Origin: Pelagomonas calceolata
Taxonomy: Eukaryota
Length of the DNA: 64,000 nt
Direction: 5' to 3'
NCBI GenBank assembly: GCA_918797485.1
Contig: CAKKNE010000006.1
Span: 558,001 to 622,000 of the forward strand
The notes beneath the pieces were generated by a model that saw only the letters and a list, made by a program, of their open reading frames with translations, did no database searches and was not told the origin of the DNA. Positions 5,921 through 47,993 of the stretch are shown here, in pieces. The position numbers and the translations under genes were made by a program. How positions within the stretch are numbered: the first letter of the stretch is position 1; the number at the start of each line of letters is the position of its first letter.

Positions 5921-5942
5921 CTAGTGTCTTACTGGACGCTAG
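5921..5942. promoter_or_regulatory. CTAG-bounded conserved upstream element (copy 1), divergent promoter
   Basis: CTAGTGTCTTACTGGACGCTAG between starts 5641(-) and 6080(+). Confidence 0.65.
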
Positions 5943-6079
5943 CGTGCTCGGGACTCGAACTGGAGTGTTATCCAGCGAATTATAAGCTGCGGGTGGCCAA
6001 TTTTCACATCAAAATCTCCCACCAGCTGTCCTATGGCACTGTGCACGTTTGCAGCCGAAACGGCCGACTAGTCGCCACG

Positions 6080-9000
6080 ATGAGTTTTGAAAAGGGCGAC
6101 GTGTCGTCGTCCCCGACCGATGACGCGGCGCCGGAGGGCGAGCCGGCGCCTGACGCCGCGCCATTGCCACCGCCCCCCGTGCCGGCGTTCCTGGAGGGCG
6201 TTTCCGCACCGACAGAGCCTCTCGCGCCGAGCACGGTCACCGCGCCTTCTACGGTCGAGGAGCTCCCGGCCGCCGCGGCGCCGCCGCCGGCCGCCGCGCC
6301 GCCGTGGGCCAGCGGGCCGCCGCCTCCAGCCGCCGCGCCGCCGCCGGCCGCCGCGCCGCCGCCGCCGGCCGCGGCCGCCAAGCCGCCGTGGGCCTGCGGC
6401 CCGCCGGCGCCGTCGAGCCCGGAGCCGCCGCCGCTCCCGGCCTCCGTTATCGCGCGCGCGTCGCCGCTCGGCGCCACGCTGCCACGAGCGTCGCCGCCGC
6501 GGGTCCCGGTCGTGACCCAGGCGTCGCCCCTGCCGGTGCCGGCGGCGCCGCAGCCCGCCGTGACCGTGCCGCGAGCATTACGCGAGCTCGCCGCGCACAA
6601 CACGCCCGCGACCACGACGGCGCTGATGGCGGCCGCCGCGCCACCGCCACCTCCACCAGTGACCGGCCTGCGCTTCAAGGGCGGCGTGTCCTCGGAAACG
6701 GCCGCGGCGCTGCAGCGCGCGGGCGCGGCGCCGCCGCCCCCGGCCGCCGCGGCGTCCGCGCGGCCGCCGTGGGCCTCAGGACCACCGGCGCCGCCGTACA
6801 GCGTCGGCGATTTGGTGGAGGTCAAGCCCGACTGGTCGCCGGGCTGCAACCGCGAGGGCGGCCCCGGCCGCGTCACCGCCGTCAACAGCGACGGCACGTA
6901 CGACGTCAAGTACTCGTTGGGGAGAGGCACGATGCAGGGCGTCCCGCTCGCAGACATGTCCATCCCGTCCAAGCAGAGCCAGGGCCCGGGCGAGGCCGCG
7001 AAACGGTCGCGGCGACGGCAGCCGACGCGGCGCTTCAGCGAGCTGGCCCAGGACGGCCAGAACTACGGCGAGCCCTCGGACGAGCCGCCGCCGCCTCCCA
7101 AACGACGGCCGAAGAAGAAGCGGGCCCTCGCGGTGGCCATGGGCACTGATCTTAGACCTGCGGCGGCGTTACAGAAGCCCGCTGCCGTTGCGCAGCCGTC
7201 CCGACCAAAAGATCCTCCGTTACCTCCGGGCTTGTGGGGCTCGTCCGAAGCACTCGTGTTCAACACTACGAACCCGAAGCGGGGCATGTCCGCCGAAAGG
7301 TATGATAGGTACAAGGCGGCGACTACTGTTGCCGAGTTCGCTCAACTAGGTGGGTCTACTTCCGACTTGAGGTTTGACTTAGCGCGAGGGTATGCTCGCG
7401 TCCTCAACCCGGCGATGCAGCCCGCGCCGTCGTCGCCGCGAGGTCGGCGGTGTGGTGTCTGTGCCGGTTGTCTCGCGCAGGACTGCCGGCAGTGCCCGTT
7501 CTGTCTAGATCAAAAACGCTACGGCGGGCCCGGCAAATTACATAGGACGTGTCAACGACGGAACTGCGAGGCGCCATTACCGTCCGCACCTCCTCCGAAT
7601 GGTGTCAAGCGCAAGGCACCCGTTGTTCAAGAGCCGAAGAAGCGAGGCCGGAAGCCCGCGGCGAAAGCACCCCCGGTAGCACCGAAGCCGGCGCCGAAAC
7701 GATCCCCCCAGAAGGTGCCGGATAGAGCAGGCTTGGAAGCGAGGATGACCGCCGACGGCTGGACGCGCGAGGAGAAGCCTCGCGAGGGCTCGACGCACGT
7801 CGACAAGTACTTCGTGCCTCCGAACGGTGGGAAGAAGCTACGCTCCATCCTGGAGGTGGCCCGCGCCCACTACCCGTCGTTCATTGTCCAACAGAAGGTG
7901 GCACCGCCTCGACCGCTGACGGGGACCTCCGCTCCTGGTCATGTGTGGAACCAGAACGAGCCGGAGGTCGACGAATTAACTGGTGTCGCCTACCAGCCGT
8001 GTGGGGTGTGCAAAGGTAAAAAAGGTGGCGAGTTATTGATGTGCGACGGGAAGGATGGGACTTGTGATAGGACGGCGCATACGGGCTGCTTAAATAAAGA
8101 ATTTCCGCCCGAGGGCGACTGGTTCTGCGCCCAGTGCCGCGCGGCGGCGCAGATCGCGTCGGCGCCGCCCTTCAAGAAGCCCACGAAGAAACGTAAAAGT
8201 GCTGCGAAGAAGGCTGCCGATCTACAACGGTTGGGTCCCGAGCCCCGCGTGCGGTTTAACGATAGCGTGACGGTGATCCAGTGGAAGGCGGCGCCCCGGG
8301 CGGCACCGCGGAAGCGCGGCGAGCCCGTGCTGGAGGACGACGCTACTCGAAGGGCCATTGCGGCCTCTCTGGCTCAGTATAATGATGATGATGGTAGCGA
8401 GTACTCTGATGACTCCGAGGAGCCCGACGACGACGACGGCGGCGAGTGGTCGCCTGACGTTCCAGCGCCTGTTGTTCAGAAGAAGAAGCCTGTGGTGAAG
8501 AAGTCGCCGCCGCCGCCGCCGCCGGCCGTGCTCGAACCGTTACGAGTGCCATCACAACGCTTCGCCGTCGGCGCTAGAGTAGAAGCGCGCTGGGAGGGCG
8601 AGTGGTGGCCGGCCATCGTCGACCAGGTCTGCGAGGACGCCTACGAGGTCGAGTGGGTCGAGGAGCCCGAGGTTTTTAATCGGCTGGATCTGGAGGACGT
8701 GCGGGCCGCTCGAGCGTCGCCCCACTTCGTGGCCGCGCCGCCGACCGTGCCGCCGGCCTGGACTAATGCAGCAGCCGCGCTCGCTACGAGTTCTCCGCCG
8801 TCGAAGGGCGGTACAATACGGCAGCCGTCGCCGCTCGCGGCCTCTCCCACGCGCGTGGTCTCGCGGTCGCCTCCACCTGTTGTACAAGCGCCGCCCTCGC
8901 CGACTGCTGTTCCCGCCGCGACGGGCCGCTGGGCTCCTGCCGCGCCGCCCGCGCCTTCCGCTCCGGCGACGTGGCCGCCGCGCGCGCCGCCGGCGCCATT

Positions 9001-9205
9001 ATTACCGATGGCCGTCGCGCCGCCGCCGTCCGTGCCGCCGCTCTGGCCGGCCGGGGCCGCGCCGCCTCCAATTGATGAGCCGAACGGGACGCCGCGGCGA
9101 CCACCTCCGCCGGACGTGGAGATGACGCCGCGCGCCGAGCACGACGCGTCGCCCGGCGCGACGCCCTCCTTCGCACAGCCACGCGCGCTCGATGATGATG
9201 TCTAA
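6080..9205 (+). CDS. Proline-rich multi-domain chromatin reader: Tudor/Agenet-like, CXXC zinc finger, MBD-like, PHD finger, Tudor
   Basis: CGVCAGC..DCRQCPFCLD..RYGGPG..C..RNC (CXXC). GWTREEKPRE..HVDKYFVPPNGGKKLRS (MBD-like). CGVC..GELLMCDG..CDRTAHTGC..PEGDWFCAQC (PHD). FAVGARVEARWEGEWWPAIV (Tudor). Confidence 0.8.
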   Translation: MSFEKGDVSSSPTDDAAPEGEPAPDAAPLPPPPVPAFLEGVSAPTEPLAPSTVTAPSTVEELPAAAAPPPAAAPPWASGPPPPAAAPPPAAAPPPPAAAAKPPWACGPPAPSSPEPPPLPASVIARASPLGATLPRASPPRVPVVTQASPLPVPAAPQPAVTVPRALRELAAHNTPATTTALMAAAAPPPPPPVTGLRFKGGVSSETAAALQRAGAAPPPPAAAASARPPWASGPPAPPYSVGDLVEVKPDWSPGCNREGGPGRVTAVNSDGTYDVKYSLGRGTMQGVPLADMSIPSKQSQGPGEAAKRSRRRQPTRRFSELAQDGQNYGEPSDEPPPPPKRRPKKKRALAVAMGTDLRPAAALQKPAAVAQPSRPKDPPLPPGLWGSSEALVFNTTNPKRGMSAERYDRYKAATTVAEFAQLGGSTSDLRFDLARGYARVLNPAMQPAPSSPRGRRCGVCAGCLAQDCRQCPFCLDQKRYGGPGKLHRTCQRRNCEAPLPSAPPPNGVKRKAPVVQEPKKRGRKPAAKAPPVAPKPAPKRSPQKVPDRAGLEARMTADGWTREEKPREGSTHVDKYFVPPNGGKKLRSILEVARAHYPSFIVQQKVAPPRPLTGTSAPGHVWNQNEPEVDELTGVAYQPCGVCKGKKGGELLMCDGKDGTCDRTAHTGCLNKEFPPEGDWFCAQCRAAAQIASAPPFKKPTKKRKSAAKKAADLQRLGPEPRVRFNDSVTVIQWKAAPRAAPRKRGEPVLEDDATRRAIAASLAQYNDDDGSEYSDDSEEPDDDDGGEWSPDVPAPVVQKKKPVVKKSPPPPPPAVLEPLRVPSQRFAVGARVEARWEGEWWPAIVDQVCEDAYEVEWVEEPEVFNRLDLEDVRAARASPHFVAAPPTVPPAWTNAAAALATSSPPSKGGTIRQPSPLAASPTRVVSRSPPPVVQAPPSPTAVPAATGRWAPAAPPAPSAPATWPPRAPPAPLLPMAVAPPPSVPPLWPAGAAPPPIDEPNGTPRRPPPPDVEMTPRAEHDASPGATPSFAQPRALDDDV

Positions 9206-9232
9206 CCAACCGATCGTTTTATTACTACTCAT

Positions 9233-9613
9233 CTAGGCCATGAAGACGAAGTAGCCCCCGACCGCCGCGACCAGCGCCCCGGCGACGGCCACAAGCAGGA
9301 AGGAGTCGCCGTTCCCGGTATGCGCCGGCGCCCGCAGCGCCTGGAGCTCCTCCTCCGTCGCGTCGAGCGTGCCGACCAAGAACTCCTTGAGCTGCTGCCG
9401 CGCGTTCATCGAGTGGCCGATGTCCTCGAACATGTCGTCGGCGTATTTGCCGGCCAGTTCCAGTAACACGGCGTCGCCGCCCGGATGCTCGTCAAGGTAC
9501 TTCGTCACATCATACACCTTGGCGCCGCCCGTCCTTTCATTCCCGATGATCAAATAGCAGTCCTCTTCTCGGTCGTGGGCCGCGACCTCCGCTAATGTTA
9601 GAGTTTTGCTCAT
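9233..9613 (-). CDS. CYB5: Cytochrome b5, tail-anchored
   Basis: KVYDVTKYLDEHPGG and FEDIGHS heme-binding motifs; C-terminal TM helix. Confidence 0.95.
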   Translation of the reverse strand: MSKTLTLAEVAAHDREEDCYLIIGNERTGGAKVYDVTKYLDEHPGGDAVLLELAGKYADDMFEDIGHSMNARQQLKEFLVGTLDATEEELQALRAPAHTGNGDSFLLVAVAGALVAAVGGYFVFMA

Positions 9614-11780: not shown

Positions 11781-12046
11781 CGCGTTGCGTCGACGGCGTT
11801 CAGCAGCGCTGCTCCAGAGGTGTTGCAGAGCAGCGCGCGCCGCGAAGCGATGGTCCAGTCGATCAGTGCGGATGCTGCGACGGCGTAATGATGCCGCTAG
11901 CTCATCTATGCTGTCGCGAGCTGCGAGCAATTTTTTTTTTGCAGCTAAAAACCCGTGTAGACGGGTTTTCTCTCTACGTGTGTTGCCGTGGGTATTGGGC
12001 GAGCCATTATTTCCAGAGGATCGCTATGTTGTAACCATTACACACT

Positions 12047-12410
12047 CTACGGCGGCGGTGGCGACGGCGGCGTCTCGCGGGCGCGGAGCGCGGCTCGCGA
12101 CCTTTGCAGTTCCCGCTCAAGCGTCTTTGTGAACGGGTGCGCGCCGCCGAGGACGCGCCGCGCGATCCGTTCCGACTCCTCGAGCGTCGCCACGGCCTCG
12201 CGGAGATCGTCGAGTGTGGCGGTGGAGTCATGGTAGAGCGCCCGCGCGTAAACCCATCCCATCCTAAGCGTGAGATCATTGCCCTCCCCGAGAGCGCGTC
12301 GCGCCACGGGTATCGCTTTGCGAAACAGCGACTTGGCTTCTTCGAAGCGCTGTAAACTACAAAGGGTTGTTGCGAGGTTATTGACAGATATGAGGGTATC
12401 CCTATGTCCG
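12047..12410 (-). pseudogene. 5'-truncated fragment of a kinesin-light-chain-type TPR gene
   Basis: TLISVNNLATTL..RFEEAKSLFRKAIPVARRALG..ATLDDLREAVATLEESERIARRVLGGAHP. No start codon; abuts an oppositely oriented paralogous fragment. Confidence 0.6.
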
Positions 12411-12412
12411 GT

Positions 12413-12580
12413 GCCACCCTCGACGATCTCCGCGAGGCCGTGACGACGCTCGAAGACTCGCAACGGATCGCAAGGCGCGTGTTTGGCGGCGCGCACCCGC
12501 TCACGATGGGGATTGAGGGCAGCTTGCAAGACGCGCGAGCCGCGCTCCGCGCCCGCGAAACGCCGCCGAAGAGGGCGTAA
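12413..12580 (+). pseudogene. Second 5'-truncated TPR C-terminal fragment (inverted paralog)
   Basis: Translates ATLDDLREAVTTLEDSQRIARRVFGGAHPLTMGIEGSLQDARAALRARETPPKRA*. Inverted homolog of 12066-12220. Confidence 0.65.
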
Positions 12581-12597
12581 AAACAAAACACAATTAC

Positions 12598-14061: not shown

Positions 14062-14082
14062 CTAGCGTCGTAAAGACACTAG
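14062..14082. promoter_or_regulatory. CTAG-bounded conserved upstream element (copy 2), divergent promoter
   Basis: CTAGCGTCGTAAAGACACTAG between 13959(-) and 14253(+). Confidence 0.65.
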
Positions 14083-14252
14083 CCCGCATCGATTGTCCGC
14101 CCGCCTTAGCCGTGCACACTGATCGCCAGCGCCTCGTCGTAGTCGCATCGATGCAACCTCCAGCGCTGCGCAGAGATCGGCAGTCGTGCGACTCGCCACT
14201 GCTGTGAAAATGGGCACATTGTGAGAGCACCACTTTTTACGCCATCGAAGCG

Positions 14253-15266
14253 ATGGCTGCACGCTGTCGCGGCTACCTCGCCGGCTTGCAAAGCTGGGTC
14301 TCGCCTCGAACTCGTCAAACATTGCTCGGCGGCGAACCTTTTGGTAGCTTCGAGCATTCGTACGACGCGCTCGGCGGCGTCGACAACGCGGACCTACTCG
14401 CCTTCGAGGCCGACCTAAAATCAACACGCGGCTGGGAGTTCAAATACGGGTCGCGGAACTGGAGCGTCGTCGAAGCCGGCGGCGTGCGCGCTCTGCTCAA
14501 CAACGAGGCGCCGGCGGCCGTTCAGAGCAGCATTCGCGTCGACGGCGGCCCGCCGCCCCTCTCCGGCCCGCTCGGGTCCGCTGTGGGCGGCCTCGGCCTC
14601 GCTGCACCCCTGTACAAGTCGGCGGGTTTCGGTGGGTGGGGGAAAAAGCCGGCTGTGCTGCTCCTGGGCGGCGGCGGCTGCGCGTTACCACCCGTCCTTC
14701 GCGACGCGCTAGGAGCGACCGTGACAGCGGTGGAGCCGGACGATGAAGTTCGGAGCATCGCGCGCGAGTATTTTGGGGCGCCCGCGGAGTTGACCGGCGA
14801 CGACGCGGCCGAGGGCGCGCCCGCGGTGCCAACGCCTGGAAGTTGGGGCCACCTCGTCGGCGGCTGCGGCGCCACGGCGGTGACGGAGGCGCGCGATGGC
14901 AGTTTTGACATTGTTGTTGTCGACGCCGCGGACGGTGGGAATGCGCCGCCTGACGCGTTGGCGTCGCCTGCGTTCTTCGCGGATGTAGGTCGAGTTCTCG
15001 CTCCGAGGACGGCGGTCCTGGCCGTCAATCTGGTCGCCCGGGACGCCGAGACCCTGACGCGTGTACGCGACGCGGCGGCCGGCGTCGGCGGCGAGCTGTT
15101 TGAATGTGAGCTGCCGGCGCCGCTCGTTGCGGAAGGATCTCCCGATTTCGCGCGGCTCCTGTTCGCGGTCCGCGGCTATGATACGTCACCGTTGTGGGGG
15201 CATCCGCTCCTCGCGCACGTTGATGAGTCGGAGTTGTGGATGACAGGGTTCCGGGGTCTTGTGTAA
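14253..15266 (+). CDS. Class I SAM-dependent methyltransferase (spermidine-synthase-like/METTL13 C-terminal-like)
   Basis: VLLLGGGGCALP, VTAVEPD..V..IAREYFG, FDIVVVDA, LAVNL motifs. Confidence 0.7.
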   Translation: MAARCRGYLAGLQSWVSPRTRQTLLGGEPFGSFEHSYDALGGVDNADLLAFEADLKSTRGWEFKYGSRNWSVVEAGGVRALLNNEAPAAVQSSIRVDGGPPPLSGPLGSAVGGLGLAAPLYKSAGFGGWGKKPAVLLLGGGGCALPPVLRDALGATVTAVEPDDEVRSIAREYFGAPAELTGDDAAEGAPAVPTPGSWGHLVGGCGATAVTEARDGSFDIVVVDAADGGNAPPDALASPAFFADVGRVLAPRTAVLAVNLVARDAETLTRVRDAAAGVGGELFECELPAPLVAEGSPDFARLLFAVRGYDTSPLWGHPLLAHVDESELWMTGFRGLV

Positions 15267-15312: not shown

Positions 15313-15333
15313 CTAGTGTCTTCATGCCGCTAG
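15313..15333. promoter_or_regulatory. CTAG-bounded conserved element (copy 3)
   Basis: CTAGTGTCTTCATGCCGCTAG immediately upstream of the small ORF at 15340. Confidence 0.6.
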
Positions 15334-15339
15334 CATTAT

Positions 15340-15669
15340 GTGGGGCACGCGCACATCGAAGCATTGACACGCACCATCGAGCACCAACGCGCCGGGGAAG
15401 AGCTGAGGTTCAACAGAGACTCAGACACGCCCTGCGGGCCGGGGCCCAACGCGGCGCCGGCGGAGGGTGGCGGCGGCGGTTCCAAGAAAAAGAAGAAGTC
15501 GTCGAACGACTCGCTGGCGCTCGGGCTCGGCCTCGGGTTGGGTTTGGGCGGCTTGCTGTTGATCGGGCTCGTCGCCATGCTCTGTATGTCCAAAAAGAAG
15601 TCTCCGACGTCGACGCGCGACGCGGACGTCGAGAACGAGATGGTCAAGACGGGCGCAGCCATGTCCTGA
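15340..15669 (+). CDS. Small single-TM ORF or gene fragment (no ATG start)
   Basis: KKKKK-SSNDS-LALGLGLGLGLGGLLLIGLVAMLC-MSKKK resembles the C-terminal TM tail of a larger surface protein. Coding-like codon usage. Confidence 0.35.
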   Translation: MGHAHIEALTRTIEHQRAGEELRFNRDSDTPCGPGPNAAPAEGGGGGSKKKKKSSNDSLALGLGLGLGLGGLLLIGLVAMLCMSKKKSPTSTRDADVENEMVKTGAAMS

Positions 15670-18404: not shown

Positions 18405-18469
18405 CTGATTTTTTGTAAGTTCACTCGGTCCGCGCGGATGACGAGTTTCTGAGACTGGATTATTTTTAC

Positions 18470-18486
18470 GGTGCTAGGACTAGTGG
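18470..18486 (+). promoter_or_regulatory. Second upstream motif GGTGCTAGGACTAGTGG (copy A)
   Basis: 17/17 identical to 38151-38167; about 210 bp upstream of ATG 18698. Confidence 0.45.
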
Positions 18487-18697
18487 GCGTGACGCGCGGA
18501 GCAGCCTAGCGACAGAGGTACTAGAAGTGGAGGTGCTTCTCGCGCGCGCACAAATTGGGCAGCAATTGGGTAGCACGAGTGCAGCAAACGGCTCGTGGAG
18601 CCGCGCCGTAGCCTCCTCAAAAAAACGCACGACCACAGTTCGAGGCAGTAGACGCTGACACAAAATAAAAGACAGGAGCCTCTTGGGCAGCCCCACC

Positions 18698-20867
18698 ATG
18701 CAACGGCGCCCCCCCAGCTCGCCGATAACGACACCGCCTCCCGGATACTTCGATCCACCACCGCCGCCGCCGCGTCCGCCGCCGGGCGCGCCGTTGCCGC
18801 CCAGACCACCTGGTCCACCGCCGTATCAACCACCGCCTGGCGCGTTCCTGGCCTTTCCGCCGCCGCCACCACCACCACCTATGACGTCGCCCTTCGCCGC
18901 GGCCCTCGCCGAGTTCCCACCGCCGCCGCCGCCCCTCGACGCCCCGGGAGCACCGCCGCTCGAGTCGTCGCGCATTTTGCAGTCGCCGCTCGAGCCTCGG
19001 CCCGTGCCGCCGCCGCCGCGCACGCCGCCACCCGGCAGCAACCCCTGGGACCGGCCGCCCGGGAGCCCGCAGACGCTGCTCTTCCGGACGCCGCCGCCGG
19101 GACCTCCACCGGGCCCGCCTCCCTTATCAGCTTTCAGGACGCCGGGCGGGCCCGGTATCCCGGGCCCGCCGCCCGGACCGCCGCCGCTCAGCGCCCTCCC
19201 GGGCCCTCCGCCGTTGCCCGGGCCGCCACCGTCGCAACCGCCTCCAATACCGGAGCCGCGCGTGCTGCCGCCCTCGCCGTCGCTCGCCACGACGCCGTCG
19301 AGGCCGGTCGACGAGGACGCCGCCGTCCACGAAGCGCGAACAGCATTAGATGAATACGACGCAAAGGTAGCCAAGGAGGCTTCCAGTAGAGACAACGCGT
19401 CCATCTCGTTACTCATAAGAGCCCTCCTCGACGCGTCGGAACGACGCGCGCGGGACGACGCCTGGGCCGAAGCTATTATAAGGGACGCCGTGGCCTGCTA
19501 CGCGGGCGAGGACGGGAAGTGGGGTTTGAGGGAGTGGCGGTGCTTCTGCCGCGATGCGCGCCTCGAGGAGCCGACGCCGGCGCCCGAGCTCATCTGGCTC
19601 ACGTTGTACGATCGGGCGGCGACGTCGGGCGGCGGGTGTGCGCTGACGCGCGTCGTGCGCGCGGGCATTGCCGACGAGCGCGCCGACGAGATGCAAGTCG
19701 TGGAGCTCGTCGAAGCGCTGAGCGCGGCGCATCTTGCCGCTCGTTCCATGACCGAGGATATTGATCAATTCACGTGGCGCTTGTTGGCGCCGTGTGCCGC
19801 GCGCCATCGGAACGGAGGCGGGCCCGGCGACGCGCGGAAGCTCGGCGCGTGCGACGGCCGGACGCTCGACGTCATTCTGGAATCACTACCGGCGTTGTGG
19901 GTGCTCTTCGGGGCCTACGCGCGCGACGGGCATAATAAGAGGGCGCCGCAGGACTTTCTGGACGCGTTCCCGCTGAGCGTGCGTTTTGCCGCGTCCTATT
20001 TCCGTCGTTTCCCTACCGCTTCGTGCCTATCGACGCGACGCATCTTGCGACCTCCGCGTCGATGGCGTCTCTATCCCCTCCACACGTCGCCGACGCGACC
20101 GCTTCCCGTCCGCCGTCTGTCTTTCCCTATCGCTTCGTACATATCGACGCGACTCGTCTTGCGAGCTCCGCGGCGATGGCGTCGAACCCACACAGGCCAA
20201 GGTCGCGGAGAAGGCCGCCTCGGGCGCGGGCGACGGCGACGCCGCCTTCGAGCGGGAATTACGACGGGACGGCGTCGCGCCCGCCGACTACGCACTTTCA
20301 TTGACGCCGCAGCGCTTCGTACTGCTGTGCGACGACGTCGGGCTCTCGGACGTCTGCGCGCCCGGCCAAGCGCTGGCCTGCGCGAAGCGCGCGAGAGTGG
20401 CGCGTGCAGCGAGCTCGCCCAAGCAAGCGCCGCAGCGCGCCGCCTTCCAGTCTCCCCTCCTGAAAACAACCGCGGCACAGCGGCTCCGGGAGCGGGCCGT
20501 CGCGAAGCGGCGCCAGGAGCGGACGAGGGAGACGGACACGAACCTCGCCTTCACGTGTTCTTCGTATCGAGCCGCGCCGCGGCCGCGACCTCCCACCGCG
20601 ACGACGCCGCGCCTCGCGAAGGTGAAAGGACTGTCGTTCTGCGAGTTCGTCGAGGCTTTGGTAAGCCTCGGTGACGCCGCCCTCGCGGCCGACGCGCACC
20701 TGCGGAGCCTCTACCCGTCGCCGCCCGAGCGCTGCCGCGCCATCTTCGACGTCTGGTGCCTCGCGGACGTCTGCGACGAGGTCGCCGCTCAAGCTGTCGC
20801 GAGCGCGCCTCGGCCGCGGTGGCGGAGTTCTTTTGCCGCGCGGCCGACGCGCGTTTCTCGCAGCTAG
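18698..20867 (+). CDS. Proline-rich hypothetical protein with EF-hand/p25-like helical segments; 2 exons (intron 19979-20195)
   Basis: A 217-nt GTGCGT..CACACAG intron joins ORF 18683 to ORF 19986 in frame (FPLS|AKVAEK). 'LSFCEFVEAL' motif. Confidence 0.7.
19979..20195 (+). mobile_element. 217-nt introner-related intron with internal ~62-nt direct duplication
   Basis: Core-motif variants. 20008-20068 is repeated at 20122-20183. Ends in CACACAG like the family TIR. Confidence 0.7.
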
Positions 20868-21767: not shown

Positions 21768-22096
21768 CAGGGCAGCATCGTGGGGGCTGAGGCAGCGCAG
21801 CGATGGACAGACGTGACGAGTCGATTGTTTGGGACCAGTACGCGCCGTCTGTTGCCACGCACAGCAGCTTTTTAGCCCCGCAGCCAGACCCAGCTTTCAG
21901 AAGCTTCGGCGCGCGAGTCCGGACGGCTCCTCGGGAGCCCTCGGCGGCAATTCCCAGGGCTCCCCAGGCGCCGTTCCAGACCAATGCAGGACCAGAATTT
22001 TGAACGCTAGTGTGCCTAGCTAGTGTTCACATCTTTGAGAGCTCTTGTCAGCAGAGTCGTGTTCGGCAGCCAGCTGCGAGCACGAGCCAAGCAAGG

Positions 22097-23611
22097 ATGC
22101 AGAGGGTTGTGTTAGCAATTTGTTTGGCCGGCGCGGCCGGCCTCCTTGCACCGCAATGCGCCGTGCGTGCGCCGCGGGCCGTCCTGCGCGCCGAGGCCGC
22201 CGAGGCTCCGGCCGAGGCGACCCCTGCGCCGACGTTCAAGGTGATTGACATTCCGTCGGACAAGTGCGCAGCAGCGTAGAAACAAGAGAAACCGCCCTTG
22301 AGACGGCCGCGCCGCCCGGGTTCGAGTTCGCCACCCGGGGCGCCAAGACAACAAATGACGCCGCCGCCGGCCGCATACGCCGGCGACGCGACAGTACATC
22401 GACGCCGAAACGCCACCCCGACGTCGTCGACGCCCGCGACGCCCGCGACGCCCGCGACGACCGGACCGCCACCCCCCCGCAGGCCCAAAGAAGAAAAAGA
22501 AGAAGAAGTAGTGGACCCCAAGGCCGAGGAGGAAGAATTAACGAAGAACATCAAGGGCAAGCCCATCATGGGCGTCTCCGGCTTCTTCAACGATGCCACG
22601 CGCAGCGACCAGCGCGTCCTGGACGTGCTCCACGCGCAGAACGTCTGGGGCGCCATCGTCGCGTTCTCCGACGACATGGTGGCCAACAAGAAAAGACTTA
22701 TGAGTCGTTCCGCGCGCTACTCGGGATTACTTGGAGTGTTGCGCTTCGGCGAGCTCAACTCCGGAGATGTGGCGACGTCCCTGGAAAACGCGGAGGTCCA
22801 GGCCTGGCTGGCCTTCGACGTGGCTCCCACGGAAGTCGGGGCTACTTTACAAGCTGCTATTAAAGCTAAAACTGTGGAGCGCGTCGTCGTCGCGTCGACG
22901 GGACCGGTCCCGGACGACCAATTGAAGGTCGTCGAGGGTGAAGATATTGACTGGTCCGTGGTTTCGTTCGACGTCGCGGCGTTGGCTGATGATTTACCGG
23001 AGGGCGGTCCTCTAGCTGTTGATCGTGATAGCCAGGACCTGGCCTCGGCCATTTCTCGGGATGATGCTTGTAGGGTCGTCGCGGAAGCGTTCGTCCTGGA
23101 ACCGGCCACGAAGAAGCGCTTCGTCGTCAGCAATGGTGGGGAGATGTCCGCACTTTATTTGAGATCTTTGAGGGAGCAGGGCTTCTCGCGCCGAGCGGAA
23201 CTCGGCAAGCTCATCCAGGGCGACATGGCCGCCTTTGAAGAGGCCCAGAAGCCCAAGGAAGAGGTCGTCGAAGAAAAGACCGAGGAAGAAAAGAAGGCCG
23301 AGGCCATCGACCGCGCGAAGGAGTACGAGGAGCTCTTCGCCGAGTCGCGCAAGCAGGCTGCCGAACAAAGAGAACGGGCCATCAGTGCCAAAGCTCGGGA
23401 GTGGCTCAGTGGCCGCTGGGAGGCGAAAAAGTACTCGACCGCCGCGGGCATCGACGTCGAGGCGTACATCGAGGAGAACTGGGCCGAGGGCGTCAAGGAG
23501 GCGTCGGCGATCCTCGGGTATACGAAGAAGAACGCCCAGGGCATGAACGTGGACGATGACGACGATGATGATGATGATGACGACGACGACGACGACGACG
23601 ACGACGAGTAG
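22097..23611 (+). CDS. Plastid-targeted NAD(P)-binding Rossmann-like protein with acidic tail; 2 exons (intron 22264-22482)
   Basis: Bipartite-like leader MQRVVLAICLAGAAGLLAP. A 219-nt GTGCGC..CCGCAG intron removes the stop (PSDK|PKEE). 'AISRDDACRVVAEA' is SDR/NmrA-like. Confidence 0.7.
22264..22482 (+). other. 219-nt spliceosomal intron with 9-bp tandem repeat (CGACGCCCG)n
   Basis: GT..AG ends, frame-preserving; repeat at 22428-22463. No clear TSD/TIR. Confidence 0.7.
23552..23605 (+). repeat. (GAY)n trinucleotide repeat encoding poly-Asp
   Basis: GAC/GAT run just before the final Glu codon and stop. Confidence 0.9.
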
Positions 23612-23794
23612 GCGTCCTTCCCGGCTAACTATTGTATACTTATAGCCTTCTCTCGCGGCGATGGCGTATCATCGGTGTTTGCTCGTGCTGCTACGGTAAC
23701 TGTCTCTTGTGCTTCGTGGGACGTGTAGACGTGTCGCGTCGATGGCGTGCGAGTGGTCGGACTCGATGTGGTACCGTAATACATATATCGCTTG

Positions 23795-23815
23795 CTAGTG
23801 CCTTACTGGCGCTAG
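23795..23815. promoter_or_regulatory. CTAG-bounded conserved upstream element (copy 4)
   Basis: CTAGTGCCTTACTGGCGCTAG, about 180 bp upstream of ATG 23996. Confidence 0.65.
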
Positions 23816-23995
23816 CTGTGCCAGCTTGGGCAAAAAAAAATCGGCTGCAGCGCACGGCAGTGCAACGAACGATATACGAGGAAAGACAGATTCTCTATAG
23901 ATCGCTAATCGCAGCGCCAATTTAAACGAGCAGTTCTACCTGCTCTCAAAGCACAGCACCAGACCTGCAGAGGCCGACGGCAGCGAGCTGCAAAA

Positions 23996-26344: not shown

Positions 26345-26482
26345 GCTTACTTGCCTGACTGCGGCGCGGCGACCGTTTGCTGGCTGCGACAGTTGCGCAC
26401 GGCAGCGAATCGATGCGCAACGTATAATTGATGCAGCCGCGCTCGACTATCTAAGCGAGCGACTCGTTTGCGCCAAGCTGAG

Positions 26483-26504
26483 CTAGCGGCCTGTAAGACA
26501 CTAG
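26483..26504. promoter_or_regulatory. CTAG-bounded conserved upstream element (copy 5), divergent promoter
   Basis: CTAGCGGCCTGTAAGACACTAG, identical to 40320-40341. Confidence 0.7.
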
Positions 26505-30529: not shown

Positions 30530-32145
30530 ATGGCCTTCTTCCAAAGCGGAGACAAAGAAATAGTTGTGGACGACGACACCGTCGAACCCTACGAGAGCCC
30601 GCTCGCCCATCAAAAGTCGTACGACGACTTCAGTGCAGTACAAGAACCCAAGGCGAGGCAAGGCCGCGTCTATCGCCTCCAGCCCGCCGTGAAGCAGTAC
30701 GCCTGGGGGATCAGAGGAGGTGATAGTCGCGTAGCCCGCTATGGCTTAGAAACGGGCGCGTTAAAAACGATCGATCAAAGTGCTCCTTATGCGGAGATCT
30801 GGCTCGGCACGCACCCCTCTGGGCCTTCATTATTAGATGATGGGACTGAGTTATCCAAAGTAGTCAAGGGCGGCAACCTACCTTGGTTGCTGAAAGTCCT
30901 CAGTGCCGGGAAAGCCTTGTCCATCCAGGCGCACCCGGACAAGTCCCTCGCGGAGAAGCTCCACAAGGACAAGCCCGACTTGTACAAAGACGCAAACCAC
31001 AAGCCCGAGATGGCCATCGCGCTGACGCCCTTCGAGGCCATGTGCGGGTTCCGGCGGCTGTCGGAGATTGCGGTCCACTTGCGCAAGCATCCGGAGTTCG
31101 CCGCTTGTATTTCGACCGAGGCGCAGCTCGCCGTCTTCACGGCGGGGCCCCGCGATTCGAAAGCGCAGAAACTGGCGTTGCATAAAGTGTTCGAGTCGTT
31201 TATGGTCTGCAGCGGTGTCTCTCAGAAATTTCAACATGCGGCGCTCTGCTCGATGGCGTCACGTGGATTCTACCCCACCGCCACGCCATCGCCGCGACGT
31301 CGACGCGACGGCTCACCGGTCACGCAACGCAGGCCTGCGAGCCCGACGTCTCGTCCGCCCAGCTCAAGCTCTTGGTCCAACGCCTAAGGAGGGAGCAGCG
31401 CGCCCAGTTCCGGCCGAGCGGCGCGCAGCACATCAACCCCGCGGCGCCCGTCCTCTCGCCCGGCTCCGCGGCCAAAGATGATGAGGTCCCCGAGAGCGCC
31501 TGGGAGCGGAAGGCCGCGCGAGCTATTTTGAGATTGGAAGAGCAGTTCCCGGGCGACGTCGGGGCCATGGCTCCGTTGTTTCTCAACTACTTATTGATCG
31601 CGCCCGGAGAAAGCTTCTTCATGGCTGCGAACGAACCGCACGCCTACGTCGCCGGAGAAATCCTGGAGTGCATGGCGTGTTCCGATAATGTGGTGCGGGC
31701 CGGACTGACGCCGAAGATGAAAGATGTTGATAATCTCGTGGACATGCTGACCTATAGCATGGGTGGCCCTGACATCGAGTTTGGTCGATTAGTCCACCAG
31801 GGGCCTGGTACTCGTACCTTATGTTATACTCCCCCAGTCCCCGAGTTCGAAGTACTCATTACGACGGTCGAGACCGGTGCTACTTATGATATCGCTCCTT
31901 GTGAGGTTCCTTCTATATTAATCTGTGTGGAAGGTATCGGGCATACTCAAAGTGCTCCTGGGCCTGATGGGGTGGAGCCCCAAAGAAAACATAGATATGA
32001 ATTGTGCCCGGGCAAATCGCTCTATATCACGGCGGGCACCGTGGCGCTGACGCTCGTCAACGACATGACCACGAAAGGACCGCTGCGGGTCGCGCGGGCG
32101 CGCCAGAACCTGAGCCTGGCGGGGCGCGCGGAGGACTCCCAGTGA
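30530..32145 (+). CDS. MPI: Mannose-6-phosphate isomerase, type I; 2 exons (intron 31205-31332)
   Basis: QYAWG, PYAEIWLGTHP, LLKVLS..KALSIQAHPDK, DANHKPEM, NEPHAY, ECMACSDNVVRAGLTPK. A 128-nt intron joins the frames (ESFM|ACEPD). Confidence 0.93.
31205..31332 (+). mobile_element. 128-nt introner-derived intron
   Basis: GTCTGCAG vs downstream GCCTGCGA (decayed TSD). Core ACGCCATCGCCGCG at 31283-31296; CTCAC branch-like motif; CGCAG acceptor. Confidence 0.8.
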
Positions 32146-35280: not shown

Positions 35281-35302
35281 CTAGTGTGTTACAGGCCGCT
35301 AG
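35281..35302. promoter_or_regulatory. CTAG-bounded conserved upstream element (copy 6)
   Basis: CTAGTGTGTTACAGGCCGCTAG, 79 bp upstream of ATG 35202(-). Confidence 0.65.
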
Positions 35303-36271: not shown

Positions 36272-36665
36272 GAGGTCCGAGATGCTCTCCGGGTCAGAGA
36301 TGCTCTCCGGGCTGTACGGCTTCCAGGTCGACGCGTGGTCAGTGCCGCGGGCTTCGCGCAGCAGTAGTAAGTCCAAAAGAGCTCTAGCGCAGGTTGCAGG
36401 CGCCAGGGAGACGAATGCGCAAGGCGCTTCAAGGCTGATCGAGGTGGTAGCGTAGCGAGGCACTAGCCTGCTGGCAGAAATCCGGCGCTGCTCTGCCGCT
36501 TTTCGAGGCCCGTGAGTGCCCCACGCATCTGTAAAGGGTCTCCGGAGTAGCTACTCCTGCCCCCTCGCCGCAGGCCTGCGAAAGAGCGCCGCTCGCGCAG
36601 TACCATCGTCGGCCGGCTGCCGAAGCCGGAGAGCGCCGCTCAGCAGGAACGCCGTCGCCGCGACC

Positions 36666-38048: not shown

Positions 38049-38150
38049 ATACCCCTTCCCCCCTTCACCCGTTTGGAAATCCAACGGGTCACGACTCTCT
38101 GCCCTAACTTGGAGGTGCACACATCTTTTCCTTGCTATCTTTTCTGTTGT

Positions 38151-38167
38151 GGTGCTAGGACTAGTGG
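38151..38167 (+). promoter_or_regulatory. Second upstream motif GGTGCTAGGACTAGTGG (copy B)
   Basis: Identical to 18470-18486. Confidence 0.45.
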
Positions 38168-40048: not shown

Positions 40049-40319
40049 GCTGGTGTGATGCTGACTGCGCCTTGCTGCTTGAACACTATGCGCTGCCCTG
40101 TGCTAAACTGAGGCCCGCGGCGAGCCTGGGATGCGGCGCGCTGCTGTAGCGCTTTGAATGCTCTTTGCTTGTGTGTTCACCGCAAGGGCGCGGCGGCCCG
40201 TTCTACGTATACTGGCCAAACAAGCAGTCACTGGGCTGCACCGTGGCTCGTGTTCGATTATCTACGGGCGTTTTTGGTGGAGAACTGGGCCAAATTCAAT
40301 GCCCGCCGGCCGGAGCTAG

Positions 40320-40341
40320 CTAGCGGCCTGTAAGACACTAG
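40320..40341. promoter_or_regulatory. CTAG-bounded conserved upstream element (copy 7), divergent promoter
   Basis: CTAGCGGCCTGTAAGACACTAG between 40048(-) and 40525(+). Confidence 0.7.
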
Positions 40342-40524
40342 CAATTCCAGCCCCAAGCTCCAACGCCTGGTTTTGGCAAGCACGGCTGCTCTACGCCCGT
40401 GCTAGGAGCCTTTTCGACGACTACTTTTGCTGCGCGCACTGGCAGGACACAGTTTCGCCGCGTGAAAAGCATTGGCAAGCCAAGCAGAGGACAAGCTCGC
40501 CGTACAGTGCTGCGTCGTGCGACA

Positions 40525-43811: not shown

Positions 43812-44042
43812 AAACGTCGGCTTAAGACGCTGTCGAGCTAGAGTATAACAAGGACTGAGGCTCGATTGGCTGTGTCAGCCACAAACGCTCTCTGTGCCAA
43901 CCAAAGTCTGTGAGGGCTCAGGAAGCGACAGCACTATCCGAGCGTGGTCCCAGGCGATCAATGGCAGCCCAGAGCAATTCAGTAAGTCAGCAAAGAAGTT
44001 GCCAGCGGCACAGCGCTCGGAGCCGAGCTGGGGGAAATTGAG

Positions 44043-44065
44043 CTAGCGGTCTGTAAAGACACTAG
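44043..44065. promoter_or_regulatory. CTAG-bounded conserved upstream element (copy 8), divergent promoter
   Basis: CTAGCGGTCTGTAAAGACACTAG between 43811(-) and 44375(+). Confidence 0.65.
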
Positions 44066-44374
44066 CAAGCAAACACGGAACGCGAATGCAGCCGTTTGTG
44101 TATCGTTCGGTTCGCTAATGGTTCAAAGAGATCAATGGGACACGTACTGGGGGCCGAAAAAATATTTTTTTTAATTCGCGGGCGACGATGGCGCCATGGC
44201 CCATGGCGGCGCGCCGGCTGAATCCTGTCAATCCCGGCCATTGCAGTTTTTGCTTATGGAGAATCAGACTCAAAGTTCCGGCGTGCCCGCGTTGAACAGA
44301 AGACTGAACTGCGGGACGATGCAATTAAACCGAAAGGTGACGAGCTTTTCTCATTCGCCCAGCTCTATCACTTC

Positions 44375-44881
44375 ATGTACGACAACTACGAGCCGCAGTA
44401 CTGGTGGTTCGAGTGCTTCGACTACCTGCGTCGGCTGGCGCTCACCGGCTTGATGGTCATCGTTCTCCCGGGCTCTGCGCTCCAGGGCTTCATCGGCGTG
44501 CTCATAGCTCTCGGCGGGCTGCTGTCGTACAACACGTTCCAGCCCTTCGTCGAGGACGCGTCGGATCACCTGGCGATGGCTGCGCAGCTCTCGACCTTCT
44601 TTGTCTTTCTGTCGGCGCTGATGATCCAGGTCAACGCCGTTTATCATCGCAAGGGGTTTGGGGCGTTGCTCACGGTCGTCACGTTCGTGCCACCTTTTAT
44701 ATCTCTCTGCGGTGCGTTTTACTCGTTCTACGGCGCGATGAAAGATGCACCGGAGCCCGATTCCTCGAAGGCGGCGAAGGAAAGCGCGGCGGATCCCGAG
44801 TCGTCACCTACATCTCCTCTTGCGCGGGGCGCGCCGCCGCAGGAAGATGAGGAGGCGCCCGCGGCGCCCGCCAAGGACTGA
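44375..44881 (+). CDS. C-terminal multi-TM module (TRP-like, 'Y.P.YWWFE..D.LRR') typical of large surface proteins; likely truncated
   Basis: YDNYEPQYWWFECFDYLRRLALTG, QPFVED, 4 TM helices. Confidence 0.55.
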   Translation: MYDNYEPQYWWFECFDYLRRLALTGLMVIVLPGSALQGFIGVLIALGGLLSYNTFQPFVEDASDHLAMAAQLSTFFVFLSALMIQVNAVYHRKGFGALLTVVTFVPPFISLCGAFYSFYGAMKDAPEPDSSKAAKESAADPESSPTSPLARGAPPQEDEEAPAAPAKD

Positions 44882-45103
44882 TCTGCTTAGGGCCGCGGAC
44901 CTCACGCTCGCGTGCCCACGACGCCGCGCCTCTCAGGCGGGCGGCGTCTCTGTACACAACTCCATCGACGAACGCCGCGGACGAATGGCATCGCCCCCGG
45001 GCAATCGACGACGAGCCCGGCTTCCCCGATGAGTAATATACCTCTCATCTTCTAGCGTCGAATCTCAGGGTACGCCATCGCCGCGACTTATTAAAACATA
45101 ATA

Positions 45104-46036
45104 TTAATCAGCCTTCCCGGCAAGCACCTTCGTCGTCGAAAAGACGGCCCCGTCGAGCAAAGACGCCAGCGCGACGCACCCCCCGACGACCGCGCACAGC
45201 GACACCAAAAACTCCAGTATGGACGTCCGCTCCTTCTTGACCTGCACCATGACGGGGAAGAAGTCGTAGAAGAAGACGATGCCCGGGACCGCTGTACTGT
45301 CTGTCTGTAACTGTTTTGCAGAAACATAAGACTCGGCGAGCGAGTACTGGTTCGCGACTTGCGGGAACCAGCCGTCGTCGAGGACCGTCGGGATGACCTT
45401 CAGCGCGTAGCGCGCCTGGCCGTCGAGGTCGGGCGAGACTAACCCATCTAAGGGCGCGTTTTTTGTTACTGATGATCGGCTCCCGAACCTGAAGACATGC
45501 ACTTTATGCGTCATGTTCTTTGATGGTCCGGCATTCGTCGCTTGCCGCAGAAAGGACTGGACCATGATCACGTTCGGCTTGGCCGGGGCCGCCGCCGCTG
45601 TGAGCCCAACGGAGAAGTGGGCGCTCACTTTCCCCACCCGTAGCTTGCCGTCCAAGGTGCAGCCTTCACTGGTGGAAGCGTCGCTCCACCCATACAGCTC
45701 CTTCGCATGCGGTTCCCGGAAGTTTATTCGATCGACCGCGTCCCGCAGACCTCGGGCGGCCTCTATGGATAATTCGAGGTCGTCGCACTTCACGTGCGCG
45801 AACGTTGCAGATAATTCAATGGGGAGTCGGTCGGGGACATGAAAAGGACGGCTGCCGATGGACGCGTCGCCGTCGTCCACTCCGAGGTGATGTATTGAAT
45901 TTGGGTAGAAGTACGACGACAGCTCACCGGTTAATAGTGATAATATAAGTAATACGCAGCCGCCCGTAATCAGAGCGCCGGAGACCGTGCGCTCCTGGAC
46001 GCCCTCGACCGCCCGCGCGAGGGGGTGGCTGGACAT
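45104..46036 (-). CDS. ERGIC/Erv41-Erv46 COPII vesicle protein
   Basis: RTVSGALIT, EGCTLDGKLRVGKVSAHF, NMTHKVHVFRFG, PGIVFFYDFFP, FLVSLCAVVGG, C-terminal GKAD. Confidence 0.88.
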   Translation of the reverse strand: MSSHPLARAVEGVQERTVSGALITGGCVLLILSLLTGELSSYFYPNSIHHLGVDDGDASIGSRPFHVPDRLPIELSATFAHVKCDDLELSIEAARGLRDAVDRINFREPHAKELYGWSDASTSEGCTLDGKLRVGKVSAHFSVGLTAAAAPAKPNVIMVQSFLRQATNAGPSKNMTHKVHVFRFGSRSSVTKNAPLDGLVSPDLDGQARYALKVIPTVLDDGWFPQVANQYSLAESYVSAKQLQTDSTAVPGIVFFYDFFPVMVQVKKERTSILEFLVSLCAVVGGCVALASLLDGAVFSTTKVLAGKAD

Positions 46037-46170
46037 GACTGCCTAGCCTGTGGCAGGCAGGGATTGTCACGGCTCGCAGCGGCGTCGTGTGCGGCTCTCA
46101 ATACGTGCAAAACCGTTGCACAAAGCTGCCACAGTGCCTGATTTCGAGCTGCGCCGGCGCCTGCGGATGC

Positions 46171-46191
46171 CTAGTGTCTTACAAGCGCTAG
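46171..46191. promoter_or_regulatory. CTAG-bounded conserved upstream element (copy 9), divergent promoter
   Basis: CTAGTGTCTTACAAGCGCTAG between 46036(-) and 46393(+). Confidence 0.65.
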
Positions 46192-46392
46192 GTTAATGAT
46201 CCAGGAGCTTTTTTTGCGCGCAGCCCTCGGCTCGGGAGCTATCTGCTATCTCCCGTTTAATCTACACGAGTACGTACTTCGTTCATTCCGCCCTGCAATC
46301 GGCACGAGCGCTTCACGCCCGCGTTCCACACAACTTTTGACCTTGTAAAGTTACTCAGGGTCCGAGTCAGGGAGTTACAACAAAATAACCTG

Positions 46393-46728
46393 ATGTCGGC
46401 GCACGTCTGCGGCGGCTTCACGGAGGAGCGGCCACTCGACGAGGAGGCCGCGGGCGTCCTGGAGTCGTGCCGCGCCGAGATCGAGGAGAAGGTCGGCGCC
46501 GGTTACGTCGCGGACATCGTGAAGACGCAGGTCGTCGCCGGGATGAATTTCTCGTACCGCGGCAAGCTCGCGAACGGCAAGCACGCGAGCGTCAAGATCT
46601 TCCGCCCGCTCCCCCACACGAACCAGCCGCCGCGCGTCACCAACGTCCTCGTCGCGTCCGTCGAGGGCGACACGATGACGGTCGAGAAGATGTGGGACGA
46701 GGCCGTCCAGGGCGCCGCCGCGGAGTGA
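46393..46728 (+). CDS. Type 1 cystatin (stefin-like) cysteine protease inhibitor
   Basis: N-terminal CGG, TQVVAGMNF, KIFRPLPH; no signal peptide. Confidence 0.85.
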   Translation: MSAHVCGGFTEERPLDEEAAGVLESCRAEIEEKVGAGYVADIVKTQVVAGMNFSYRGKLANGKHASVKIFRPLPHTNQPPRVTNVLVASVEGDTMTVEKMWDEAVQGAAAE

Positions 46729-46747
46729 GTAACACAAACGATACACA

Positions 46748-47779
46748 TTACAACTCGAGGTCCACCCCGATCAACGCCCGCCGCCGCCGCAACTCCTCCA
46801 CGAGCGGCTCGAGCGACTTGACCGTCGCTTCGACAACTCGCGCGTGGCCCGCGAGCATGGCGTCCTCGCCGTCGCTCCGCATGTCGCGGATGCTGCTGCG
46901 GTAGTCGTCGTCGTAGACACTGCGCGACAGGGCACGCTGTACCGGCGAGTTCATAAAAAATTCCGCGGCCTCGTCCCAGCCACTAAAGCGGAGGCGGTCG
47001 CGCGTCAGCACCAGGTCCTCAGGGGCGTTCACGGGGCCCTCGAACCAGAACGAGACGCAGAGTCTTGGAGAGGCGCCGCGCCACCTCTCTACCGAATGGA
47101 GGACGCGGTCCGACTTGAAGAGGACAAGGCGGTTCATGAGCGGCCGGAACCGCGCGCGGCGCCGCAGAAAAGGCGCCAGGCACAACGCGCCGCCGTCTTG
47201 ATCCGAGACCGCCGCACCGTCAGCCCGGCCCAGATACAGCACGGCGGTCACGCTCCGCTTCGACGGCGGCCCGGCGTTGTCGTAGTGGCAGGCAAACGCG
47301 CCGCTAGTGTTGCGCTGAATCTTGATGGCCGCGTCGCCGTCGAAGACTCCGCAAGAAACAGCGAGGGCCGGCACCAGCGCCTCGGCGACGCCGCGCAGGT
47401 CATTCGCAAGAGAGGTCGCACACGTGCCTTCGGCGAGGTCGACCTCCGCGACGCCGGGCTTCGCATACGTCTGGCCATCGTACACAAAGGTATGCTGCTT
47501 AAACGTCTCTTGGGCCGCGGCGTCGCGGATGCGCGCCGCTACACTAGGTAGGAGCGCGTCGTCTAGGACGGCCCAGCCCTTGGCGCCCGATACGGAGGCG
47601 CCGGCGCCGCGCGCGCGTCGACCGAACGCGTCGTCGACGAGCGCATCGGCGTCATCATCATCAGACGCGTCGGCGACGTCTGCGAGAGCGCCTCCCAAGC
47701 CTAATAGGTCGTCGAGCGCTCCTGCTTCGGAGTCGTCGTCGGCGGCGTCGACCAGTGCCGTTTCGCAGAGAGTAGCCAT
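46748..47779 (-). CDS. 2OG-Fe(II) oxygenase (EGLN/SM-20-like)
   Basis: FACHYDN, VTAVLYL, DGGALCL, NRLVLFKSDRVLHSV, RLCVSFWF. Confidence 0.85.
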   Translation of the reverse strand: MATLCETALVDAADDDSEAGALDDLLGLGGALADVADASDDDDADALVDDAFGRRARGAGASVSGAKGWAVLDDALLPSVAARIRDAAAQETFKQHTFVYDGQTYAKPGVAEVDLAEGTCATSLANDLRGVAEALVPALAVSCGVFDGDAAIKIQRNTSGAFACHYDNAGPPSKRSVTAVLYLGRADGAAVSDQDGGALCLAPFLRRRARFRPLMNRLVLFKSDRVLHSVERWRGASPRLCVSFWFEGPVNAPEDLVLTRDRLRFSGWDEAAEFFMNSPVQRALSRSVYDDDYRSSIRDMRSDGEDAMLAGHARVVEATVKSLEPLVEELRRRRALIGVDLEL

Positions 47780-47971
47780 GTATGCCTTGCGATCGCTGCT
47801 GCAGTTTGCAGCCCTGAGAGCAGGCAATACAAGTTTTGCTGCTCGCTTTCGAGGTTGCGTTTGGTGTAAGCAGGAGCCGCAGAGATCAAAAGTATTGCAG
47901 AAAGTGGTGTGTGTGGCCCGTATGCAGCGTATTTCGAGCTGTACGGCTCGTCAGCCGAGCTTGCTTGCTTG

Positions 47972-47993
47972 CTAGTGTCTTACATGCCGCTAG
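47972..47993. promoter_or_regulatory. CTAG-bounded conserved upstream element (copy 10)
   Basis: CTAGTGTCTTACATGCCGCTAG, about 190 bp upstream of ATG 47779(-). Confidence 0.65.

Follow-up and report, generated by a model that had tools for sequence, protein, structure and literature searches.

What is a sequence of about 22 bp doing at ten places, in either orientation, in the noncoding DNA of one stretch of an algal genome? The stretch, referred to here as the window, comprises 64,000 nucleotides (nt) of Pelagomonas calceolata (contig CAKKNE010000006.1, positions 558,001 to 622,000), and an earlier interpretation, which we call the sequence-only reading, had proposed that the repeated element marks promoters. 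Based on its position relative to genes and transcripts in the window, and on scans of metagenome collections and sequencing runs that reach beyond these 64 kb, we consider it probable that the element is the binding site of a general promoter factor that acts regardless of orientation. The element itself is real and genome-wide in Pelagomonas.

The element and its distribution

All ten copies were found where the sequence-only reading had placed them. In each, two CTAG palindromes are separated by 13 to 15 nt (17 to 19 nt from start to start), and the copies at 26483 and 40320 share the same core, in line with the claim that two copies are identical. We define the strand of a copy as the one on which CTAGTGTCTT is read first. 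The described extent, about 22 bp bounded by the CTAGs, holds for the core; the boundary does not, as a partly conserved GCTTG lies outside it on one side and CT on the other, giving a wider consensus of GCTTG-CTAGTGTCTTACAGGCCGCTAG-CT. Two imperfect inverted arms flank an asymmetric spacer of 5 to 7 nt; of these, arm A (TGCTAGTGTC) is the stronger and arm B (read inward as AGCTAGCGGC) the weaker. Core length is 21, 22, and 23 nt in four, five, and one of the window copies, respectively, and 21 to 23 nt in 143 of 149 copies overall, the search pattern having admitted these lengths alone. Fourteen aligned columns are invariant in the ten window copies, with variation in the spacer and inner columns, and conservation tapers over 5 bases beyond arm A and 2 beyond arm B before reaching background level. 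Such fading flank information, together with column-by-column constraint, would be the profile of a protein-binding site.

A consensus search allowing up to three mismatches recovered five copies in the window, compared to 0.00 in 100 shuffles. With a two-block matrix, the ten copies score 34 to 45 bits (27 to 44 in leave-one-out scoring) and the next site in the window scores 12; after refinement on 148 copies, the ten score 32.8 to 45.0 bits and the next site 11.9. Two further sites are possible decayed copies, one at 36447..36466 (minus strand, 11.9 bits) in a divergent interval, and a weak one at 18506..18524 (minus strand, 11.4 in a loose scan and <3 bits with the refined matrix), with the 5' end of an RNA contig (18551) 27 nt away.

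The metagenome scan matched at least 129 stretches, bringing the set to 149 distinct copies with those of the window, and yielded at least about 140 further Pelagomonas copies. Eight of ten proteins from motif-bearing metagenome loci (numbered with the prefix L) are present in a protein collection, and four of their clusters list P. calceolata members. From the context counts we left out L039, L083, and L119 (alphaproteobacterial transfer-messenger RNA), L019 (a duplicate of L018), and L001 and L002 (viral); the consensus tables of 149 and 146 copies still contain L039, and the 150-site context set contains L010, which lacks an algal-type gene and is probably a chance match, and a weak site at 40168. 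The two viral matches are the same sequence in AT-rich DNA and were taken as chance. Among 185,579 prokaryote genomes searched with a stricter pattern, three matches were found, one per genome, and each is apparently an algal fragment joined into a bacterial contig. In effect, viral contigs and prokaryote genomes lack the motif. Algal-looking fragments within contigs of bacterial metagenome-assembled genomes (L127:1860-4090, L128, and L129) are probably misassemblies.

The window holds 10 copies in 64 kb (about 1 per 6 kb), and 22 loci of at least 4 kb contain 16 unselected copies in 141 kb. Extrapolated to a genome that we take to be 31.7 Mb in length, this corresponds to about 3,600 to 5,000 copies. 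The gene number used alongside this total is 16,667 (PMC9481584).

Position at genes and transcript starts

None of the 150 sites falls in predicted coding sequence, compared to 68 expected, in agreement with the claim that the element is confined to noncoding DNA. Both neighboring genes could be called at 59 sites (45 of the 150 have no called neighbor), and of these sites 35 are divergent, 22 tandem, and 2 convergent, compared to 29.8, 20.3, and 8.9 expected from interval length (P = 0.04). The element is thus depleted from convergent and coding regions; equal frequency there would have counted against a promoter role. Where a gene was called on one side of a site, that side faces a 5' end in 128 of 164 cases, with a median distance to the ATG of 174 to 196 nt. 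No orientation bias is seen, as arm A faces the gene on 60 sides and arm B on 68, and tandem cases divide 11:11. In the window, nine copies lie 78 to 309 nt from a predicted ATG, close to the 80 to 310 bp estimated earlier, and the neighboring genes, judged by their Pfam assignments, are functionally unrelated. The count of six copies between divergent genes was too high: the gene model gives five, the copy at 26483 being tandem. The divergent excess after length correction (35 versus 29.8) is small, so location between divergent genes mostly reflects the compactness of the genome.

RNA reads and contigs were mapped over eight of the ten copies, those at 5921 and 35281 being outside this set, and the 5' end of a transcript was taken from the most upstream contig among those listed. 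Runs X15 to X20, whose shares were small, were left out. Eight 5' ends were obtained beside seven copies, and all eight lie 6 to 50 nt outside the edge of the element, whereas the ATGs of the same genes are 135 to 272 nt away. Compared to uniform placement of 5' ends between ATG and element, this is a tight arrangement (Fisher combined P = 0.0024), and none of the contigs that give these 5' ends crosses its own element. The lack of a fixed relation to transcript starts would have refuted the earlier proposal; with 8 of 8 measured 5' ends at 6 to 50 nt, it is not refuted on this point.

The copy at 40320..40341 (minus strand) lies between two expressed divergent genes whose RNA contigs (records from run X12, with strand taken from runs X21 and X22) end at 40305 for the minus-strand gene and start at 40353 for the plus-strand gene, 15 and 12 nt from the element. 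These transcripts start 48 nt apart, and the 47-nt untranscribed gap between them holds the 22-nt core and its conserved flanks; at two divergent promoters without a full copy the gaps are 162 and 182 nt. At 44043..44065 (minus strand, core of 23 nt), the contig of the minus-strand gene begins at 44008, 35 nt away, and the other flank is a dispersed repeat. The copy at 46171..46191 (plus strand) lies 20 nt from the 5' end of the ERGIC gene (minus strand, 46151), and the plus-strand gene is silent in X12, X21, and X22. The copy at 47972..47993 (plus strand) occupies a gap of 67 nt, bounded by the 3' end of one transcript at 48018 and the 5' end of the next at 47950 (22 nt away). The divergent copy at 14062..14082 (minus strand) has its 5' ends read on the side of the plus-strand gene, at 14100 (18 nt) and 14119. 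At 23795..23815 (plus strand, tandem), contigs begin at 23865 (50 nt) and 23877, with poly(A) upstream at 23642-23644. The copy at 26483..26504 (minus strand) is upstream of a HAD phosphatase gene on the minus strand, with 5' ends at 26477 (6 nt) and 26467; this protein is 72% identical to one of Aureococcus anophagefferens and 93 to 96% identical to marine proteins. On one side of the copy at 15313..15333 (plus strand) is the 3' end of the gene at 14253-15266, and on the other a silent gene fragment. Two such silent fragments, at 15334-15669 and 44375-44881 (C-terminal, and membrane-spanning by appearance), directly adjoin element copies. Of the two copies outside the RNA set, that at 35281..35302 (plus strand, tandem) has an ATG at a distance of 78 nt and the upstream stop at 42 nt, and that at 5921..5942 (plus strand, 42.3 bits) is divergent by the gene model and upstream of a CXXC/MBD/PHD gene; it falls within a frame that is free of stops from 5600 to 9205 and has an ATG in frame at 5861, and the gene model favors the ATG at 6080.

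We infer that the element is a double-stranded site read by two similar protein domains, given its position-specific constraint, the lack of a structure signal (see below), its indifference to orientation, and the tight placement of 5' ends. The factor would be abundant and general, and would probably read the site as a dimer or with paired related domains, one per GCTAG-(T/C)G arm. In either orientation of the element, the bound factor may keep the spot open and place transcript starts a few tens of bases away on both sides. Protein binding and a causal role in initiation are predicted, and a barrier role is conceivable where an upstream transcript ends beside the element. Of the Reb1/Abf1-like role suggested earlier, the promoter-factor part is supported by the noncoding location, the depletion between convergent genes, and the 5' ends at 6 to 50 nt, and a mobile origin is possible, as 15 of 150 copies share flanks.

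Several observations weigh against this explanation. One of the eight copies examined by RNA, that at 15313, has no expressed 5' end alongside, and those at 44043 and 46171 each have one silent side in the runs examined; at these two of the five divergent copies, the second gene shows no RNA depth in its inside bins in raw runs X21 and X22. The ends of poly(A) RNA sequencing contigs approximate start sites and are not cap sites, the sample is small (eight ends from seven copies), and the three contig runs that supplied the 5' ends were labeled RNA by guess, based on spliced introns and near-zero depth in silent stretches. Among reads and contigs from other loci, some extend across a copy. The codon model was trained on the window, and its noncoding training set partly included these same intergenic regions. 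The context bias after length correction is modest, because most intergenic DNA is upstream of some gene, and the element is not required, a full copy being absent from 7 of the 12 divergent intervals of the window. CpG periodicity in phase with the element was not detected across 113 gene sides (P = 0.29), nor was any found in the loci at large.

Where promoters lack a full copy, single CTAG half-sites number 37 in 21 divergent intervals, versus 29.6 expected, which is not a convincing excess, and word enrichment in the flanks revealed no clear partner motif. A second motif, approximately CTTCCAGGGCTCCCGCG, came to light by BLAST and occurs within about 60 nt of arm B at 7 of 150 sites in constant relative orientation (L017:1357, L028:760, L043:4133, L054:1, L056:1447 and 5467, and L097:342), with a similar word in the window at 21950-21975; it could be either a partner site or part of a shared ancestral module. 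A recurring noncoding word with two close CTAGs, CCACTAGTCCTAGCACC, is present in the window (18466-18489 and 38145-38167) and in L054, L055, L080, and L092, often near full or decayed elements.

Conservation, copying, and alternative explanations

The element persists at its position while the surrounding DNA diverges. The orthologous loci L028 and L057 encode proteins that are 95 to 97% identical, with 61 to 62% identity at four-fold sites and 50 to 54% in the flanking intergenic DNA (global alignment), and they keep the site in place and in the same orientation, with 19 of 22 bases alike. L071 and L118 likewise keep it in place and orientation, and in L052 and L102 it is at the same place, inverted. 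In five MYND-RINGv-TPR paralogues the distance between the site and the aligned start of the gene is 59 to 72 nt, and the site points one way in two of them and the opposite way in three. Retention in orthologues rests on three pairs, and as both members of a pair were found through a pattern match, only the shared position is independent evidence; this tempers the support that the pairs give to a promoter site. The MYND-RINGv-TPR family is large (L055, L065, L075, L079, L112, L047, L040, L004, and L008). Adjoining the element in L071 (780-940) and L118 (131-287) are about 160 nt of noncoding DNA that are 89% conserved, possibly an undescribed small RNA, with no convincing Rfam match.

Noncoding flanks are shared by 23 of 150 sites, of which 8 belong to homologous gene pairs and 15 to three dispersed families; the other 127 share none. 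The earlier proposal had named longer shared repeat flanks as a finding that would speak against it; 15 of 150 copies, including that at 44043, do share longer noncoding flanks with copies at unrelated loci, and this weighs against a pure promoter site. The copy at 44043 and those in L055 and L016 have a core of 23 nt, which is rare, and about 80 nt of flank on the A side in common, with an unrelated flank on the other side and unrelated neighboring genes, so that this unit was copied whole. The shared flank is a dispersed noncoding repeat (window 44086..44163, no strand assigned) that follows the element's conserved arm in all three loci, ends in an A/T run, and has no Rfam match. Variant letters of it occur in up to 44 contigs of run X14, and its other genomic copies also follow the element by 13 to 16 letters, one of them within an RNA contig. 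The information content of the element, about 39 bits (inflated by the search pattern; window copies, 33 to 45), is roughly three times the 13.6 bits needed to find such a site, an excess that suggests spread by copying, more than one binder, or both, and that counts against a pure promoter site. As point mutation is not likely to have produced a site of 35 to 39 bits thousands of times over, the original dispersal was probably by copying, through a mobile element or small duplications.

The strongest competing explanation is that the element is the surviving end of a small mobile-element family, inserted or tolerated only in untranscribed gaps and without host function. The three families with shared flanks, the 44043 unit, and the excess information all fit, and we nevertheless regard this as unlikely. 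Constraint is position specific rather than a uniform decay, shared flanks are absent from 127 of 150 copies, the site has persisted at a four-fold identity of 61%, and at 40320 the element takes up most of the 47 nt that separate two start regions. Inspected by eye, the shared modules show neither terminal inverted repeats nor target duplications. A related and still somewhat less likely idea is that the element is a portable, self-sufficient two-way promoter, a unit of about 30 bp that is still copied, inverted, and joined to new flanks by its own mobilizing or recombining enzyme. Promoters would then be redistributed between genes, and a new paralogue or gene fragment would become active when it lands next to a copy.

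Of two specific transposon forms that were considered, the Helitron 3' end was rejected. Such an end terminates in CTRR followed by T; here the B-arm CTAG is followed by C in 117 and by T in 13 copies (n = 146), and the CTAG read on the other strand by C in 113 and by T in 1 (n = 146), and no selected GC-rich hairpin is present, as judged from the absence of covariation and of excess folding. A footprint with a CTAG target duplication is at odds with conservation that runs 5 and 2 bases beyond the CTAGs, which target preference could mimic. No empty-site alleles with a single CTAG were found among the matches listed; the one DNA run mapped there, X14, is shallow, and its long pieces are identical to the window.

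It is improbable that the element is a site-specific recombination site, comparable to dif or loxP, that also marks promoters and lets them flip or swap. The arm-spacer-arm layout with one stronger arm, the inversions at homologous positions, the shared flanks that stop near the site, and the silent gene fragments beside 15313 and 44043 are all in its favor. In tyrosine-recombinase sites, however, the spacer is fixed in length and matches in sequence between partners, whereas here it varies in both respects. As the GCTTG and CT flanks are inverted along with the core, the turned segment extends beyond the arms. In L052 there is a GCTTG...CAAGC bracket, the trace expected of a replication template switch, which could also explain the inversion at this locus. 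No PF00589 domain occurs among the 14,639 P. calceolata gene-table entries listed, and no joint resembling excision or inversion was seen at copies among the mapped reads listed.

We give little credence to the possibility that the element is mainly a boundary, a terminator roadblock, or a replication origin, with transcript starts following from open chromatin. Transcript 3' ends and stops often abut it (48018 versus an element edge at 47993; stops 36 to 46 nt away at 15313, 35281, and 47972), and one copy lacks an active promoter, yet the element is depleted between convergent genes (2 versus 8.9), and one copy per 6 to 9 kb is dense for origins.

Least probable of all is a hairpin formed in single-stranded DNA or RNA, like those of repetitive extragenic palindromes (REP) or Helitron ends or an RNA stem: the arms can pair, and the copies at 5921 and 14062 fold well (z = -5.9 and -3.4), but 144 copies fold like their permuted flanks (-8.13 versus -8.06 ± 0.11 kcal/mol), inner pairs number 166 versus 165.6 expected with no covariation, the commonest inner opposition is T.C (76 of 149), in 4 of 10 window copies folding is not stronger than in shuffles (z = -0.9 to +0.8), and the element is outside the transcripts at copies examined by RNA. 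Selection for a hairpin or cruciform was accordingly rejected by marginal and permutation tests and largely refuted by the absent covariation; a structured noncoding RNA was rejected for want of transcription at those copies, a covarying stem, or an Rfam match.

Other features of the window were recorded in passing. The window is GC rich and intron poor, with two spliced GT..AG introns of 217 and 219 nt (19979-20195 and 22264-22482) and introner-like repeats at 124-177, 3870-3918, 31275-31323, and 50103-50305. This intron class is reported for P. calceolata (PMC9481584). A TPR piece at 12047-12597 carries 156-nt inverted arms (12065-12220 and 12413-12568). Two chromatin proteins are encoded, a CXXC-MBD-PHD protein (6080-9205) and an ISWI-type remodeler with SNF2, HAND, and SLIDE domains (50896-54379). 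Scans for tRNAs and Rfam families found none in the window and nothing convincing in eight flank loci.

Significance and comparison with known systems

A single motif at an estimated 3,600 to 5,000 sites, next to roughly a third of the genes, would offer a handle on core transcription in an abundant alga. It could serve for annotation of start sites, for finding the factor, and as a two-way promoter of <50 bp in algal engineering, and its excess information, inversions, and shared modules make a testable case of a very long site spreading in a compact genome. As a promoter-marking element it is apparently undescribed: the motif does not appear in the main text of PMC9481584, bioRxiv 2024.10.30.620910, PMC13284251, or PMC3597505, nor in four of the five PMC9481584 supplements, a comparison that covers mostly open literature, in which five listed papers on unrelated organisms contain 11 letters of the motif.

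The closest functional parallels are the sites of the general regulatory factors Reb1, Abf1, and Rap1 of yeast and Sap1 of Schizosaccharomyces pombe, which, like the element, are noncoding, promoter proximal, located beside unrelated genes, and bipartite with a tolerant middle, as in the Abf1 layout. We know of no sequence likeness to the Reb1 or Abf1 motifs. Sites of this class are short, with information near that needed to find them, and the element (39 versus 13.6 bits) departs from this. It also differs in its near-palindromic arms and in starts 6 to 50 nt to both sides, and it is known here from sequence and RNA contigs. Sap1, as described in PMC5368702, binds nucleosome-free regions, evicts nucleosomes, and guides Tf1 insertion. 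The m1m2 motif pairs of Caenorhabditis elegans, which were co-opted from the CERP2 and CELE2 miniature inverted-repeat transposable elements (MITEs), are bound by HIM-17, mark hundreds of promoters, and are conserved, according to PMC9757741. They resemble the element as spaced pairs with narrow spacing at promoters. Thousands of copies that were not co-opted, however, remain there in recognizable MITEs in closed chromatin, whereas the element has unique flanks in 127 of 150 copies, and almost all copies face a 5' end. We assign the element to neither type, as its information is in excess of the first, and no parent element to match the second was found in the loci examined.

No THAP domain (PF05485) occurs among the P. 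calceolata gene-table entries listed, and at least 17 genes encode AP2 domains. Each arm holds GCTAG(C/T), comparable to the apicomplexan AP2 sites GCTAGC (TgAP2XI-5) and TAGCTA (AP2-O). AP2 domains can dimerize on DNA, and GCTAGC is an AP2 site in Toxoplasma (PMC6631176). Those sites are 6 bp long, stage specific, and from another phylum, and a match of five or six letters may be chance; AP2-domain proteins are thus a lead to the class of binder and are proposed as nothing firmer. In sequence, the element has to our knowledge no likeness to the vertebrate sites of ZNF143/THAP11, found at bidirectional promoters, or to the RE1 sites of REST; both kinds are read by zinc-finger arrays and are not near-palindromic. 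These vertebrate sites are long and information rich, some with two half-sites, and they have spread partly by duplication.

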